Positions 6,429 to 23,186 of a stretch of 27,703 nucleotides of DNA are shown in pieces. The notes beneath the pieces are model-generated. The model had not been told where the DNA came from, did not search any database, and saw only the letters and a list, made by a program, of their open reading frames with translations. The DNA lies in the NCBI GenBank assembly GCA_040880105.1, contig JBBDJA010000015.1, forward strand, positions 1-27,703. Reading direction: 5' to 3'. The DNA is from Waddliaceae bacterium (GTDB lineage: Bacteria > Chlamydiota > Chlamydiia > Chlamydiales > SLOH01). The translations under genes were made by a program, and so were the position numbers. Within the stretch, counting starts at the first letter, position 1. The number at the start of each line of letters is the position of its first letter.

Positions 6429-7604
6429 TTAAAGCTCCTCCTTTTCATCCCTTGTCTTTAAATTCTCAATAAGCGCATGGACATTTTCTTCTGTAACCCT
6501 TCGGCAATTTAACACTCTCACCTTTCGAAGACTTGGAATCCCTTCTAAAAGGGTAAGCGCATCATCTGTAAGGTCGGGACAGGTCCAAAAACTGATCGTG
6601 TGCAACTGTTTGAGTTCGGAAAAAGAGGCGAGTGCGCGTTCGTTCAGATTGGAACACCATGAAAAGTGGAGCTGCTCAATATTTGGAAGGGTTGAAAGAT
6701 GGCTGTATCCGGCCGCATCCACTTGTGTGCACTGAGAAAGGTATAGTACCTTTAAATTTTTCAATTGAGCAAGCCTATTGATTCCCTTATTCGTCACGCC
6801 TTGGCAATTGCCTAAAAAGAGGGTGTGAAGCACAGACAATTCGCTCAAATAACTAATTTCTAAATCCTTAATAAAATGACAGATGCGCAGTTCAAGTTCA
6901 CCTAATAGTCGCAAATTTCTCACATACCCAAAAGAGCGGAACGTGACATTTCTTGACACCGTCCGAAACTCCTCCACTTCAGGGGTCAGGTAAGAGAGAA
7001 TTCTCACATGATGATCTCTGATCGTATGGCGATAGCATCCAAGGTTCACACGTCTGAGCGCATAGCGTGAAAAGAGACTCTCAATAAAAATAATGGCCTC
7101 GCTTGGATCTTTGCACCCGATCTCTTTAAAATTGAGCTTTCCTTCGTTTAGCAGCTCGACAATCGCGCGGGTCGAAAGCTCTTCGGCTCGCTCTTTTAGA
7201 TCTTCTGTCGAGAGATAGTCGTAAATGATTCTTTTAAGATCGAAAATTTCTATAGCTTCATCACCCTTTTCTATGATGAAGGGAAAGGGTTTTGCTTCCA
7301 TCAGTTTATGAACGTTTTGAGCCGATTCATTAAAAAGGGCAATTTCAGAGAGCCTTTCATTCTTTTCGATAATATGATGAAATTGCATCATGACTCGAGT
7401 GATGAGTCTTGCGTTTTGATCGTCACAATGATGAAAGCGACGGAATATGTGGTATACACCCTCAATGTCTGCAGCCTCCTTCACCCCCTTTAGTATTCTT
7501 AACATTTTCGGATAAGTGGTCCTTGTCTGGAATGGTAAGAGGTGTATTTTAACCTCCTCCTTAACTTCAGACTGTACTGAGGATGGAATGGGGGCAGCAC
7601 TCAT
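6429..7604 (-). CDS. Leucine-rich repeat protein (cysteine-containing, eukaryote-like LRRs); candidate secreted effector
   Basis: C-terminal third has about five 25-aa repeats of the LxxLxLxxCxxVTDxGLxxL type; Ser/Pro-rich N-terminus; GAGG upstream of ATG. Confidence 0.8.
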   Translation of the reverse strand: MSAAPIPSSVQSEVKEEVKIHLLPFQTRTTYPKMLRILKGVKEAADIEGVYHIFRRFHHCDDQNARLITRVMMQFHHIIEKNERLSEIALFNESAQNVHKLMEAKPFPFIIEKGDEAIEIFDLKRIIYDYLSTEDLKERAEELSTRAIVELLNEGKLNFKEIGCKDPSEAIIFIESLFSRYALRRVNLGCYRHTIRDHHVRILSYLTPEVEEFRTVSRNVTFRSFGYVRNLRLLGELELRICHFIKDLEISYLSELSVLHTLFLGNCQGVTNKGINRLAQLKNLKVLYLSQCTQVDAAGYSHLSTLPNIEQLHFSWCSNLNERALASFSELKQLHTISFWTCPDLTDDALTLLEGIPSLRKVRVLNCRRVTEENVHALIENLKTRDEKEEL

Positions 7605-7770
7605 ACGACCTCTTTTACGTTTAGAATTAATCTTTTAATACTCTAAGTATCAAGAGTAAATCTAAATTATTAGGAAATGTTAGAATAATCTCACCAATGA
7701 GATATTTAAATGGTTGTTACATTCTTAGGAATTTTATGCATGTATTTTCCACTATTCGTCTAAGAGTAAA

Positions 7771-7816: not shown

Positions 7817-8146
7817 ATGGGATATGAAATCGAGATCTTCGCTAAATCAAATGGAAAAGAACCTTTTGTTCAATGGCTGGAAACTTTAGATGTTAACACT
7901 CAGGCTTTGGTTCTTCAGAGACTGCAAAGAATTAAATCTGGTAATTTTGGAGACTGTAAACCTATTGCTTCAGGACTTTGGGAGTTTCGTATCCATAGTA
8001 ATTCCGGATTGAGAATATATTACAACCGAAGCGGTGAGAAAATTATTTTAATCCTCGGTGGTGGAATAAAAAGAACTCAAAATCGAGATATCAATCAGGC
8101 CAAAAAATACTTGGAAGAATATAGGAGTAATCAAAATGAAAAATAA
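7817..8146 (+). CDS. Type II toxin, RelE/ParE superfamily (addiction module killer, HI1419-like)
   Basis: GKEPFVQWL, RLQRIKSGNFGDCKPI, GLWEFRIH, GLRIYY, LGGGIKRTQNRDI. Confidence 0.9.
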   Translation: MGYEIEIFAKSNGKEPFVQWLETLDVNTQALVLQRLQRIKSGNFGDCKPIASGLWEFRIHSNSGLRIYYNRSGEKIILILGGGIKRTQNRDINQAKKYLEEYRSNQNEK

Positions 8147-8447
8147 ACTTCGTTCTTATGATGATCTTTTAGAAGAATATCTTCAGAATCCAAAATTCGC
8201 AATCAAGTTTCTTAATCAAGCGTTGGCGGATGAAGATGTTGATGCATTCACAATGTCTTTAAAAGATATTATTCGCATACGCGGTAACATCACCGACTTA
8301 GCAAAAGAGGCTGATGTAAGCCGAGGAACAGTCTATAGGATAATAAATGGTCAGGGGCATGCAGAAATTGGAACTGTGTTAAAACTTATGCACGCATTAG
8401 GTTATGACCTTACGGTTAAAAAAAGACCTAATTCACTGAGTCTGTAA
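8136..8447 (+). CDS. Type II antitoxin with HTH (addiction module antidote, HI1420-like)
   Basis: Overlaps the toxin by 11 nt; FLNQALADED N-terminus and Xre-type HTH ITDLAKEADVSRGTVYR...LKLMHALG. Confidence 0.88.
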   Translation: MKNKLRSYDDLLEEYLQNPKFAIKFLNQALADEDVDAFTMSLKDIIRIRGNITDLAKEADVSRGTVYRIINGQGHAEIGTVLKLMHALGYDLTVKKRPNSLSL

Positions 8448-17595: not shown

Positions 17596-18831
17596 ATGCT
17601 CCGTTTCATCTTCTGTATTGCCGTTTTTACTACCGCCCTAACTCACGGAGACTTAAGGGTAAAGCCGGGAATTGATCAACTCATCGAGCAGTCGCTTCAC
17701 CTCTTAAAAGGAAAGCGCGTCGGGATCCTGACCAACCACACCGGAATTAACAGCCGTTGCCGCTCCACAATCGATCTACTGAAAGAGAATCAAACAAGAG
17801 GCTCCTATAAAGTCACCGCCCTTTTTGCGCCCGAACACGGACTGAACGGAAGTAAATATGCAGAGCAGGCGATTAACAACTGCGTGGACCCTGACGGAAT
17901 TCCCATTTACGGCTTGCACGGAAAACATTACCGTCCGACCCCCAAGGCACTTGAGACAGTCGATGTGATTGTCTACGACATCCAAGACCTCGGTTCGCGC
18001 ACCTACACCTATCTCAACACCCTTTTTCTTACCATGGAAGAGGCCGCAAAGAAAAATGTAGAGGTGATTGTCTGCGATAGACCCAATCCGATTAACGGCA
18101 TTGTTGTCGACGGGCCCATGGTCGAGAAGAAACATCGCTCCATTATCGGCTATGTGGATATTCCCTATTGCCACGGAATGACAGCCGGCGAACTTGCCAC
18201 CCTCTTTAACCAAGAGGAAAATGTCGGCTGCAAGCTACATGTCATCTCAATGACAGGCTGGAAAAGGGAGATGACATTTGATCAAACAGGGCTTCCTTGG
18301 ATTCCGACAAGTCCGCATATCCCCGAAGCTAAAACCGCATTTTACTACCCAATGACCGGAATTATCGGCTCTTTGAAACTCGTCAACACCGGCGTCTGGT
18401 ACTCAACCCCCTTCCGTCTCATCGGCGCCCCTTGGATCAACGGGAAGGAGCTTGCCGACAATCTGAACAGTCAAAACTACCCGGGAATCCATTTTCAACC
18501 CTTCCACTTTACCCCCTACTTTGGACGGTATCTCAAAGAAGAGTGCGAAGGCATCTACTTAATCGTCACAGACCCGCTGACCTTTAAGCCGGTAAGCACC
18601 CAGTTCCTCATCCTCGGCATGTTAAAGTCGCTATATCCCAAACATTTTCAAGACGCAATCAAAGCTGCCAAGGAACAAGAAGCCTCCATTGCGCGCATAT
18701 GCGGCACAGATCAAGTGACCCACATTATTGCAAACTCACCGTATATCGCCTGGCCGCTGCGCTCTTTACATAAGCAAGAGCGTGAAAACTTCCTCCCGAT
18801 TCGAAAGAAGTACCTTAACCCTCAGTATTGA
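17596..18831 (+). CDS. namZ: Exo-beta-N-acetylmuramidase NamZ (DUF1343/YbbC family) with signal peptide
   Basis: GKRVGILTNHTG, LFAPEHG, YDIQDLGSRTYTY, DRPNP, HGMTAGELA, WIPTSPHIP. Confidence 0.9.
   Translation: MLRFIFCIAVFTTALTHGDLRVKPGIDQLIEQSLHLLKGKRVGILTNHTGINSRCRSTIDLLKENQTRGSYKVTALFAPEHGLNGSKYAEQAINNCVDPDGIPIYGLHGKHYRPTPKALETVDVIVYDIQDLGSRTYTYLNTLFLTMEEAAKKNVEVIVCDRPNPINGIVVDGPMVEKKHRSIIGYVDIPYCHGMTAGELATLFNQEENVGCKLHVISMTGWKREMTFDQTGLPWIPTSPHIPEAKTAFYYPMTGIIGSLKLVNTGVWYSTPFRLIGAPWINGKELADNLNSQNYPGIHFQPFHFTPYFGRYLKEECEGIYLIVTDPLTFKPVSTQFLILGMLKSLYPKHFQDAIKAAKEQEASIARICGTDQVTHIIANSPYIAWPLRSLHKQERENFLPIRKKYLNPQY
18125..18831 (+). repeat. 707-bp direct repeat, copy 1 (3' half of namZ)
   Basis: Matches 22465-23171 at offset 4340; five substitutions found by eye. 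Confidence 0.97.
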
Positions 18832-18872
18832 AGCGAAGACCCGACAGTTTTTTCAACTTTCTCGACTGTTGT
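18831..18872 (-). pseudogene. Diverged 3' fragment of the non-specific endonuclease gene
   Basis: 35 of 42 positions match 23200-23240; reads TTVEKVEK(+1)LSGLRF versus TTFEKVKKLSGLHF. Confidence 0.7.
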
Positions 18873-18949
18873 TAAAACCACACAATATCCTTGTTAATTC
18901 TACCTTCCCAAGCTTTATTCATACTTCCCATAAATTAGAAGTTTCAAAG

Positions 18950-19114
18950 GAAATTATCACGCAATGTGAGAATTCAATTCCACTGAAACGATTTAAACAA
19001 CCAAGTGGAATCGAAAAAACTGCTGTTTTTCTAGCGCCTGATGACTCAAGCTATATGACAGGAGTAGATATGTTTATTGGTGGAGGGGTAATAAACATTT
19101 CTCCTCCTTTATAA
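18950..19114 (+). pseudogene. C-terminal fragment of an SDR family oxidoreductase
   Basis: IPLKRFKQPSGIEKTAVFLAPDDSSYMTGVDMFIGGG matches the SDR C-terminal consensus; no N-terminal TGxxxGxG or YxxxK seen. Confidence 0.75.
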
Positions 19115-19446: not shown

Positions 19447-20346
19447 TCATGTCTGCCCCCGAACCACTGGAGATAAAGTGAGCCAACCCAGTTGTGTCCA
19501 TGATTGAATCCAGATATGGAATTTATTCATCATAGTTTCCTGAACTTGACTGTCTTGAGATTTAATCCAGTCACAAGCCTCTAAAATATTTACTCCTTCT
19601 TTAAAGTACCCTAAAAGGAGGTATTCTGCCTGCCTGACTTTTTTCCATGAAATATTATTATTCATGTTTCTAAAAATGACATAATATAAATTATTTTTTT
19701 GACACATGGAAGAACTGTGTTTTTTTGAATACTCAGGATCATTATTTATTATTATTTCTCTTATGTTGAGCAAATCATATGAAGATTTTAATAAAAAAAC
19801 ATGAGGCTGCAATTTAATATTTTTATTTAAAAAATTCTCCTCTATTACAGCTTCTTTTGATATAGAAGGAAAGTGTGTGGTGATTGAACTTAAATAAAAA
19901 TATAAGTCGGTTTGAGCTGCATCAAATATAAGTTTCCCATCTGTTAATTCATTGTTTTCTTTAATCCACTCAGGATAATTCCTTCCAAGCACTGTTAAAG
20001 ACCAGTAATCAGGTGGGTATTTCATTAAATATTGAATGGTAATTTTTTCAAATTTCGTATAGCCGAGAAGGCTTAAGGTCAATGGAAAGTTTTTTTGCAT
20101 AAAATTAATTAAACGCCACCAATATTGTTTATTATATATTTCAATTCTTTGATGAGGTTTTAATGAATTGCTTGGTGATATATAATATTCTGCTTCTTTT
20201 TTTATGGGATTTCCTCTTGGAGAGATGGGATTAACCTCTTCATTTTCAGTGACAGGCCTTATAATAACACTTGCAAACCACTCTTGTAGATTCTTTACCT
20301 CAGTTGGAATTTCACCTAATTTATCGGAAAATTTATTTTCATTCAT
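19447..20346 (-). CDS. DUF2063-family MNIO partner protein (HvfC/BufC-like)
   Basis: LQEWFASVI, RIEIYNKQYWWRL...FPLT..LLG..KF...YL..YPP signature; directly downstream of the DUF692 gene. Confidence 0.85.
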   Translation of the reverse strand: MNENKFSDKLGEIPTEVKNLQEWFASVIIRPVTENEEVNPISPRGNPIKKEAEYYISPSNSLKPHQRIEIYNKQYWWRLINFMQKNFPLTLSLLGYTKFEKITIQYLMKYPPDYWSLTVLGRNYPEWIKENNELTDGKLIFDAAQTDLYFYLSSITTHFPSISKEAVIEENFLNKNIKLQPHVFLLKSSYDLLNIREIIINNDPEYSKKHSSSMCQKNNLYYVIFRNMNNNISWKKVRQAEYLLLGYFKEGVNILEACDWIKSQDSQVQETMMNKFHIWIQSWTQLGWLTLSPVVRGQT

Positions 20347-21220: not shown

Positions 21221-21277
21221 AAAAATATGTGTTTGGTAAATGTAATTTTAATAGTATAACTCGATTTTGCAACTTTT

Positions 21278-21310
21278 ACGATCATTAGCTACAGGATAGG
21301 TAATGATCGT
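21278..21310 (-). promoter_or_regulatory. Intergenic stem-loop between the precursor gene and the MNIO gene
   Basis: ACGATCATTA (21278-21287) and TAATGATCGT (21301-21310) form a perfect 10-bp inverted repeat with 3 more pairs after a mismatch. Confidence 0.65.
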
Positions 21311-21350
21311 TATTTTTTACAAATCAAGCTAAATGCAACTTTTCTTTATA

Positions 21351-21563
21351 CTATTGAGATGACCTATCGTCATCATTTACAGAGTATGAAGTTGTAGGTC
21401 TATAAGGTCCTTTGCACTGGCCACAGGTAAGCACATCCTTAAAGGGTGTGACTGTCTCATGTATGCTTGAGTCGTTGTTTTGATCCTGAATAATCGAATC
21501 ATTTGCGCTCAATGCTGAAAGCATAGATGTTGCAACTAAAGTTGCTAGTGTATTTTTCTCCAT
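21351..21563 (-). CDS. Putative RiPP precursor peptide (Sec-type signal peptide, CGQCKG motif)
   Basis: 70 aa; AAGGAG 7 nt before ATG; hydrophobic residues 6-20; only two Cys (C47, C50); immediately upstream of the MNIO gene. Confidence 0.75.
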   Translation of the reverse strand: MEKNTLATLVATSMLSALSANDSIIQDQNNDSSIHETVTPFKDVLTCGQCKGPYRPTTSYSVNDDDRSSQ

Positions 21564-21593
21564 TTTTAAACTCCTTGTTTATGATTTTCAAAG

Positions 21594-22145
21594 TTAATCT
21601 AATATTTTTGAGACATAGAATTCATTTTCATAATTCCCATTGATAAGCACAGCAGATTTCTTAACACCTTCAACTTCATATCCATATTTTTGATAAAAAC
21701 TGATTCCTATGTGATTTGACACTCTTACTTTAGCTTGTATCCTTTTAACCCCCATTTCCTTTGCAAGATTTTCCACTATAAACAGCTTCTGAGTACCAAG
21801 ACCAATAGAGCAGTATTCATTTAGTATTCTTATACCAAATTCTGCGGTGTGCTTTTCGTAAGGATGAAATGGACGAGGTTTATAAAAACTTAAATGTGAG
21901 ACGAGTTTATTTTCATCAAATCCCCCTAACTCTATCTGCCATGCTGATTTTTTTGCATCCTTCCATTTCTCTTTCAAAAAAGTAACATCTGCAAATTGTC
22001 CCGGATAGTGTAATGTATGTGTTGTTTCACTGGATATTTGGTCCGAGAAGCTTGCATAAATATCTGCATCAGCCGGCTCTAAATGACGAACGACAATTTC
22101 TTTATCGCATTTTAATAGGACTTTTTTTGGAAGGTATGTTGTCAT
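21594..22145 (-). CDS. GNAT family N-acetyltransferase
   Basis: HTAEFGIRI, acetyl-CoA loop YCSIGLGT, VSNHIGISFYQKYGYEVEG; ATG 22145 preferred because a TATAAT lies at 22173-22178, inside the longer GTG-started ORF. Confidence 0.85.
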   Translation of the reverse strand: MTTYLPKKVLLKCDKEIVVRHLEPADADIYASFSDQISSETTHTLHYPGQFADVTFLKEKWKDAKKSAWQIELGGFDENKLVSHLSFYKPRPFHPYEKHTAEFGIRILNEYCSIGLGTQKLFIVENLAKEMGVKRIQAKVRVSNHIGISFYQKYGYEVEGVKKSAVLINGNYENEFYVSKILD

Positions 22146-22464: not shown

Positions 22465-23171
22465 AGAAGAAACATCGTTCTATTATCGGCTACGTGGATA
22501 TTCCCTATTGCCACGGAATGACAGCCGGCGAACTTGCCACCCTCTTTAACCAAGAGGAAAATGTCGGCTGCAAGCTACATGTCATCTCAATGACAGGCTG
22601 GAAAAGGGAGATGACATTTGATCAAACAGGGCTTCCTTGGATTCCGACAAGTCCGCATATCCCCGAAGCTAAAACCGCATTTTACTACCCAATGACCGGA
22701 ATTATCGGCTCTTTGAAACTCGTCAACACCGGCGTCTGGTACTCAACCCCCTTCCGTCTCATCGGCGCCCCTTGGATCAACGGGAAGGAGCTTGCCGACA
22801 ATCTGAACAGTCAAAACTACCCGGGAATCCATTTTCAACCCTTCCACTTTACCCCCTACTTTGGACGGTATCTCAAAGAAGAGTGCGAAGGCATCTACTT
22901 AATCGTCACAGACCCGCTGACCTTTAAGCCGGTAAGCACCCAGTTCCTCATCCTCGGCATGTTAAAGTCGCTATATCCCAAACATTTTCAAGACGCAATC
23001 AAAGCTGCCAAGGAACAAGAAGCCTCCATTGCGCGCATATGCGGCACAGATCAAGTGACCCACATTATTGCAAACTCACCGTATATCGCCTGGCCGCTGC
23101 GCTCTTTACATAAGCAAGAGCGTGAAAACTTCCTCCCGATTCGAAAGAAGTATCTTAACCCTCAGTATTAA
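22465..23171 (+). pseudogene. namZ: 5'-truncated namZ copy (direct repeat copy 2)
   Basis: Protein identical to the C-terminal half of 17596-18831; lacks signal peptide and the PEHG/DIQD region; in-frame TAG at the junction. Confidence 0.9.
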
Positions 23172-23186
23172 AGGGGCGCAAGGGAT

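Follow-up and report, generated by a model that had tools for sequence, protein, structure and literature searches.

A TCxQC peptide family as a putative new precursor family of MNIO–DUF2063 pairs in environmental chlamydiae

The locus and its candidate precursor peptide

The window, i.e., the whole stretch of 27,703 nucleotides analysed here (contig JBBDJA010000015.1 of the Waddliaceae bacterium assembly GCA_040880105.1), carries on one strand the gene order GNAT–precursor–MNIO–DUF2063 (Table 1). The 70-aa precursor ORF, hereafter P0001, had been put forward by an earlier sequence-only reading that gave no strand; it is real and lies on the minus strand, the plus-strand frame over the same positions being interrupted by seven stops. 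With 16 homologues that preserve its frame and motif, and an intact MNIO gene 130 nt downstream, the ORF stands beyond chance. The strong ribosome-binding site claimed for it is likewise present, 7 nt before the ATG, as is the claimed tail of 20 residues after Cys50.

Table 1. Features of the window, with coordinates, strand and supporting observations
Feature	Position	Strand	Observation
Precursor peptide ORF P0001, 70 aa	21351..21563	minus (21563 -> 21351)	translation; one of the 17-member TCxQC[N/K]xP family
Ribosome-binding site AAGGAG	21571..21576	minus	sequence; 7-nt spacer, then ATG
Residues 1-20, conserved hydrophobic leader, predicted helix	21504..21563	minus	alignment, hydropathy, AlphaFold2
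His35-Glu36, candidate third metal ligand	21456..21461	minus	Glu in 17/17; preceding residue His (7) or Cys (6)
Core motif Thr46-Cys47-Gly-Gln49-Cys50-Lys-Gly-Pro53	21405..21428	minus	T, C, Q, C, P invariant in 17/17
MNIO (PF05114), 281 aa	20375..21220	minus	342.5 bits; BufB family NF050167
DUF2063 partner (PME type 1), 299 aa, intact	19447..20346	minus	50.1 bits, cut-off 27.2
GNAT acetyltransferase gene	21594..22145	minus	ends 30 nt before precursor
Stem-loop, precursor-MNIO spacer	21257..21331	minus	-27.3 kcal/mol
Direct repeat (namZ 3' half), two copies	18125-18833 and 22465-23173		709 bp, 99.3% identical
Truncated SDR oxidoreductase fragment	18728-19114	plus	C-terminal part alone; overlaps end of namZ
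Leucine-rich-repeat protein	6429-7604	minus	
RelE/ParE-type toxin-antitoxin pair	7817-8447	plus	beside leucine-rich-repeat protein gene

Residues 1–20 of P0001 had been described as signal-peptide-like, a description that holds for their hydrophobic character and for a candidate small-x-small site at residue 20 and is weaker for charge and strength. Indeed, by a hydropathy and charge heuristic, the N-region has a net charge of 0, and the best 12-residue hydropathy (1.66) is the lowest among the 17 family members, falls short of 1.80, the 5th percentile among the 142 further precursor candidates from chlamydial MNIO loci, and is attained by 24% of the 1033 ORFs of at least 200 aa in the window's genome. 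Over the family, the mean leader hydropathy (2.20) equals that of the other chlamydial precursors (2.20), a candidate cleavage site is found in 16 of 17 members, the remaining member lacking a small-x-small site, and the leader net charge is 0 in 12 of 17. A leader profile derived from the 142 chlamydial candidates ranked P0001 first of 6298 ORFs with an E-value of 0.21, which is not significant. In the AlphaFold2 model of P0001 (pLDDT 63, pTM 0.29), the sole predicted element is an N-terminal helix (residues 2–20). DUF2063-type partners are reported to accompany precursors with Sec signals (PMC12452194), and by analogy Sec export of P0001, with cleavage near residue 20, is likely. The best ESM Atlas feature score for P0001 (0.76) was below the useful range, and a promoter scan was uninformative (17 sites vs. 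14.7 expected).

Among the NCBIfam subfamily models, the window MNIO passed BufB NF050167 alone (321 bits, cut-off 310) and stayed under the cut-offs of HvfB (245 vs. 360), ApyH (81 vs. 400), ChrH (62.5 vs. 600) and MbnB (43 vs. 325). An alignment of 50 MNIOs shows no variation at H69, H104, E149, D182, N185, H213, D226, H228, E255, or D257, and we take this His/Asp/Glu/Asn set to be the iron ligands. The enzyme reads W-D-D (Asp257-Asp258) where 3BWW reads R-D-F; D258, replaced by Phe in 3BWW, is found in 11 of 11 members of the enzyme's clade. The catalytic Asp is reported to be followed by Phe in enzymes of the Lys-Cys type and by Asp in those of the Cys-Lys type (PMC13097082), and since D258 matches this published signature, with the FonB numbering mapped by inference, the window MNIO appears to be of the Cys-Lys type. 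Its ten closest MNIO loci in named genomes are 66–77% identical, nine of them from chlamydiae, and the DUF2063 partner is 32–42% identical to 52 chlamydial orthologues. The GNAT gene is probably a passenger outside the pathway; a search of chlamydial MNIO loci yielded a single weak relative (28%, E 8e-4).

The 130-nt spacer between the precursor and MNIO genes folds with a z-score of −4.7, none of 200 shuffles being as stable, and 37 of 57 other chlamydial precursor–MNIO spacers have z < −2 (median z −3.1). Strong spacer folds are thus common in chlamydial MNIO loci and the window operon has the usual architecture; the recurrence of such stem-loops suggests a shared way of setting the precursor-to-enzyme ratio. 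The operon has no DoxX gene, two being found on other contigs of the genome, and the Caulobacter buf2 operon is likewise described without DoxX (bioRxiv 2024.03.18.585515).

The two direct repeats bracket a 3.6-kb segment that contains the SDR fragment, the MNIO operon and the GNAT gene and has a GC content of 31–40%, vs. 48–49% in putA, namZ and groEL. Contigs of two runs from one study span the segment and its edges. The segment looks like an integrated cassette, an assembly artefact being less likely. Elsewhere in the window, the leucine-rich-repeat protein is of a kind typical of host-associated bacteria.

A family of 17 peptides and its association with one MNIO clade

A direct search retrieved three homologues of P0001 (59–71% global identity), and a profile search over 1.84 billion representatives added seven short homologues together with three long proteins (651–2339 aa) matching over merely 17–26 positions. 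After a second profile search, the family comprised 17 sequences of 57–93 aa (E ≤4e-15), i.e., P0001 and 16 homologues at 32–71% identity. Every member bears the motif T-C-[G/N/Q]-Q-C-[N/K]-x-P, and the invariant columns of the alignment are E2, L6, S13, L18, E36, T46, C47, Q49, C50, and P53. Mean column identity is 0.74 over residues 1–19, 0.38 over 20–30, 0.59 over 31–36, 0.36 over 37–45, 0.85 over 46–53 and 0.18 in the tail. No member scored above a Pfam or NCBIfam cut-off (best E 0.009), which bears out the initial claim that no known precursor family fits. A Pfam Zn_ribbon_recom match (14.9 bits, cut-off 25.3) was rejected as a chance CxxC match.

Other features read from P0001 extend to the family unequally. 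The Cys pair is kept in 17 of 17 homologous sequences, with the first Cys always at position 46–48, so that the sequence-only reading survives its main refuting condition. "Exactly two Cys" is right for P0001 (Cys47 and Cys50 in TCGQCKGP) and for four other members, the count rising to three in ten and to four in two. The "internal" position of the CxxC is valid for the sub-branch of P0001 and not for the bulk of the family, in which 13 members end 6–13 residues after the second Cys (19–20 residues in three, 43 in one). CKG is lost as a signature: the second Cys is followed by Asn in 15 members and by Lys in two, so that CKG is incidental.

The residue before the invariant Glu36 is His in seven members, Cys in six, Phe in three and Gln in one, and two of the three members with Phe carry a Cys two places earlier. 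As metal ligands often show such His/Cys exchange, the His or Cys at this column (13 of 17) suggests a third metal ligand, a role read from the alignment. P0001 lacks Cys29 and Met44-His45, which are found in its three closest relatives, and is the least ligand-rich copy of its sub-branch.

The association of the family with a particular enzyme was assessed by a proxy in which a homologue and an MNIO cluster were paired when their longest contigs had identical sizes, adjacency itself being seen in the window alone. Among the 119 best non-self MNIO clusters, matches were obtained for 7 of 16 homologues (shared longest-contig sizes of 53940, 21128, 10674, 3458, 20716, 2933, and 3089), and these include six of the seven MNIOs closest to the window's enzyme. 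All seven matched MNIOs fall into a single clade of 11 members, the others being the window's enzyme and three further MNIOs (FastTree support 0.99 with 246 sequences; SH-aLRT 86.9 in a 37-sequence subset), and outside this clade the 109 listed MNIOs gave no match. The other nine homologues, several on contigs of 1–2 kb, had no matching MNIO among the 119 listed. These pairings suggest that family homologues and clade MNIOs share contigs. The clade nests among chlamydial MNIOs whose loci hold six-Cys or two-Cys precursors; it differs from 215 other chlamydial MNIOs at only two columns (E170 and Q230), with no change in the active-site columns tested.

In named chlamydial genomes, the family is sparse. 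A search with the family alignment, which scored 400 of 401 genomes of the phylum (G062 being left out), found one intact copy, that of the window's genome (G000), besides a weak match with a stop in G048 (E 0.004) and a weak, frameshifted, stand-alone remnant in G156:C24 (L302, ~7593–7749), within 16 kb of which there is no MNIO or DUF2063 gene. No second precursor-like ORF was found by motif scan or family profile in the window's genome, which is 90% complete. The genome G001, of the same genus but 57% complete, yielded no MNIO, namZ or peptide match, a result without bearing on the family's distribution, and its contig stops beside the nuclease gene. A metagenome scan with a four-sequence alignment produced 90 pattern matches with zero confirmed, and one with P0007 produced a best 80 loci that are all ≤74% identical and contain no member by the family profile. 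Among viral contigs, none of 76 pattern matches was confirmed.

Other chlamydial precursors and known MNIO systems

MNIO matches (E ≤1e-20) occur in 139 of the 401 genomes of the phylum, and 124 distinct chlamydial MNIO loci were examined besides the window. In a set of 109 loci with an MNIO of ≥60% identity and ≥700 nt of upstream DNA, 58 have a bufferin-2-like precursor, 36 have only other leader-bearing Cys peptides and 15 have none by the filter. After six ORFs picked by the signal filter had been discarded on inspection as false positives, and with the end of the ORF limited to at most 1700 nt upstream, 142 precursor candidates were counted. They contain 1–21 Cys each (two Cys in 24 of them), and the TCxQC motif is absent from all 142. 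The family leader is weakly related to that of one group of chlamydial precursors (profile probability 63%, E 7e-5, 18 columns). With the core alone, a profile comparison against two groups of chlamydial precursors gave a probability of 0.3%, and the cores do not align. P0001 thus shares with the low-Cys precursors of other environmental chlamydiae its slot and a weakly related leader, but not its core.

The chlamydial loci themselves (L082–L215) show that MNIO precursor candidates have radiated widely, two or three such genes often standing in tandem. Some are six-Cys types that contain a helical insert, others have two Cys and a long low-complexity tail of up to 318 aa, and a poly-Cys type reaches 21 Cys. 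At L114, a 132-aa precursor ORF that ends ~142 nt short of the MNIO match still has the helical insert and the C-terminal segment of the six-Cys type but has lost all six Cys, an N-terminal two-Cys motif being all that remains. One chlamydial genome (G018:C1) contains five MNIO copies, one with an internal TGA, and the same 70-aa three-Cys peptide precedes at least two of them.

Among known systems, the closest are the captophorins (PMC13097082), especially the Cys-Lys/bufferin-2 group, with which the locus shares the precursor–MNIO–DUF2063 order, a BufB-type MNIO, an Asp after the putative catalytic Asp and a Cys-containing peptide, hydrophobic at its N-terminus, encoded immediately before the MNIO. 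However, P0001 is outside the three published categories described there (DUF2282, Lys-Cys repeat and multiple Cys-Lys), and the family differs by its one non-repeated CxxC and by having no predicted fold past the N-terminal helix. With the bufferin 1 (DUF2282) of Caulobacter vibrioides it shares likely Sec export and, by inference, two thiooxazoles; but none of the 17 members matches DUF2282, and two Cys are conserved rather than four. With the bufferin 2 (BUF_6/12Cys) of the same species it shares a BufB-type, Cys-Lys-group enzyme, whereas its members have 2–4 Cys instead of six or twelve conserved ones. The family also lacks the flanking structural disulfide pair of bufferins, at a length of 57–93 aa. 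Buf_EGKCG/oxazolin is remote, since no member contains EGKCG and the enzyme falls short of the HvfB model. ChrA/DybA (chryseobasin-type) peptides have the same CxxC spacing, usually near the C-terminus, and an N-terminal export signal, predicted here; in contrast, the family has neither CPxCGxG nor a lipobox Cys near residue 20, and its enzyme is not of the ChrH type. Compared by description, Adjamnio-7 (PMC12452194) shares the CxxC but has no signal peptide and belongs to a small separate MNIO cluster 7, and the hydrophobic leader and BufB-type enzyme of P0001 argue against membership. The CxxxxC family of the same study has x4 spacing, vs. x2 in 17 of 17 TCxQC sequences.

The same study reports hundreds of unclassified signal-peptide ORFs with 1–18 Cys before large-cluster MNIOs, a description (signal peptide, few Cys) that fits P0001 in general terms, and its genome table gives Protochlamydia and Waddlia as having an MNIO and DUF2063 with no classified precursor (PMC12452194). 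The TCxQC family is unnamed in the results text of that paper and may have been listed earlier in its Table S2 or Fig. S3; the family motif is absent from the rows covered in two of its spreadsheets, which appear to contain accessions and counts, not sequences. A six-Cys precursor from Parachlamydia figures in the captophorin data set (PMC13097082), and TCGQC, TCNQC, and CNQC are absent from the Cys-rich ORF data set of that paper. Literature searches found no published description of a TCxQC precursor family and none treating both MNIO and Chlamydiota. The initial proposal of a "new substrate class" is too strong in view of an enzyme that passes the BufB cut-off and is far below that of ChrH; for the same reason, the known thiooxazole (captophorin) class is the default, and the TCxQC family is best called a new precursor family within a known class.

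A candidate minimal captophorin and the alternatives

By analogy with bufferins, fontiphorin (PMC13097082), and bulbicupramide (PMC12538549), and with moderate confidence, we propose that P0001 is the substrate of the MNIO–DUF2063 pair and gives rise to a captophorin-class product, a minimal copper chelator that is exported and bears two 5-thiooxazoles. The two proteins would oxidise Cys47 and Cys50 by four electrons each, as in related systems, with an expected mass change of −4 Da per Cys and −8 Da in total. The modified peptide would then be exported via Sec and cut near residue 20, and in the periplasm its two ring thiols would bind copper, possibly with His35 (Cys in six relatives) as third ligand. 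The product would be an unfolded captophorin of ~50 residues without the structural disulfide of bufferins, and the stem-loop after the precursor gene may let the precursor mRNA exceed the enzyme mRNA. All characterised MNIO-PME1 cases are reported to make 5-thiooxazoles and generally to bind Cu (PMC13097082), bufferin 1 to function with two thiooxazoles (bioRxiv 2024.03.18.585515), and a two-Cys cassette of MmrA to have both Cys modified and Cu(I) bound (PMC12538549). Several observations run counter to parts of this scheme. The x2 spacing is tighter than that of the modified Cys in the thiooxazole products compared, x4 in MmrA (PMC12538549) and x7 in Buf1 (bioRxiv 2024.03.18.585515), CxxC belonging to the ChrH/DybH macrocycle substrates (PMC13056109). 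The Cys50 position is followed by Asn in 15 of 17 members, yet the enzyme keeps the Asp proposed to bind Lys. As for export, the signal peptide of P0001 is weak by hydropathy and charge. Also on this side are the link of the homologues to MNIOs through contig size, with nine of 16 unmatched, the loss in P0001 of the Cys29 and Met44-His45 of its closest relatives, and an operon that has no DoxX gene.

The spacing raises the question of whether P0001 could be a substrate for another chemistry, either a Cys–Cys cross-link or macrocycle as made by ChrH/DybH or the conversion of one Cys only. The strict x2 spacing, the Thr, Gln and Pro invariant in 17 of 17 and the usual distance of 6–13 residues from the C-terminus speak for it, as do the resemblance of TCxQC to CPxCGxG, turned into a macrocycle by DybH at −4 Da (PMC13056109), the grouping of the enzymes in a clade of their own, and the fact that the thiooxazole as sole MNIO-PME1 product is left open (PMC13097082). 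Nevertheless, we consider this unlikely: the enzyme scores 62.5 bits on ChrH and 321 on BufB, it is 281 aa long, ChrH-type enzymes carrying an extra C-terminal helical domain (PMC13056109), and its clade, marked off from 215 chlamydial MNIOs by two columns and unchanged in the active-site columns tested, nests among enzymes with ordinary six-Cys precursors. We give similarly little credence to a bolder form of the idea, in which a PME1-dependent, bufferin-type MNIO branch of environmental chlamydiae would have switched to a TCxQC macrocycle or another new unit, converging on ChrH/DybH chemistry from a different scaffold, and, with its upstream His/Cys ligand, the product would be an exported metal-binding peptide of a new class, for use within eukaryotic hosts.

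It also seems doubtful that thiooxazoles are made without yielding a released periplasmic copper sink, the leader staying uncleaved as an anchor or partner-binding element or the product serving in redox stress, with another metal or at the host interface. Such roles would be in line with the strong conservation of the leader (four invariant residues), its frequent zero net charge, the member without a small-x-small site, the report that the mmr genes are not expressed, their role being left open (PMC12538549), and the wide variation of Cys number among the 142 chlamydial precursors, which suggests more than one role. On the other side stand a family hydropathy no different from that of other chlamydial precursors, a candidate cleavage site in all members but one, the pairing of DUF2063-type partners with Sec-signal precursors (PMC12452194) and the dispensability of the BufA1 signal peptide for modification (bioRxiv 2024.03.18.585515). 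That P0001 is not an MNIO substrate at all, but a CxxC peptide that came along with the operon and binds metal or regulates without being modified, the real substrate being encoded elsewhere, is very improbable. In-trans substrates may occur, given the 15 of 109 chlamydial loci without an adjacent precursor by the filter, and the window's genome is 90% complete; against this, P0001 occupies the usual precursor place immediately ahead of the MNIO gene, the motif scan and family profile disclosed no other precursor-like ORF in the genome, and the family co-occurs with one MNIO clade by longest-contig size. Least credible is a form of the shortened-relic idea raised in the sequence-only reading, in which P0001 would be decaying from a longer bufferin-2 precursor with multiple Cys. 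CKG does occur in bufferin-2 repeats, P0001 lacks the Cys29 of its closest relatives, a frameshifted family remnant seems to exist in G156, and the cassette sits in a low-GC segment between direct repeats. However, 17 members as divergent as 32–71% identity keep the position of the first Cys and the invariant motif, CKG is present in two of them only, the core-only profile comparison separates the family from two chlamydial precursor groups, and neither the ribosome-binding site nor the MNIO or its partner is damaged. Among the 1.84 billion representatives, an all-length search turned up no multi-Cys parent of greater length, returning the short family and the three long proteins with their 17–26 matching positions, and the relic reading is largely refuted.

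The significance of the family is tempered by the facts that new MNIO precursor motifs are common, that the family is small (17 sequences, with one intact copy in the 400 genomes scored) and that its default chemistry is known. MNIO-DUF2063 pairs are nevertheless among the largest RiPP groups. For these pairs, the thiooxazole as only product is stated to be open (PMC13097082). The TCxQC family offers a short, putative single-site natural substrate with Cys closer together than in the thiooxazole products compared, and is therefore suited to probing both what the product can be and which substrates the Cys-Lys enzymes accept. Environmental chlamydiae are intracellular, and the protists that host them reportedly deploy copper against prey. 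The family draws attention to a wide radiation of MNIO precursors in these bacteria that has apparently gone unstudied.
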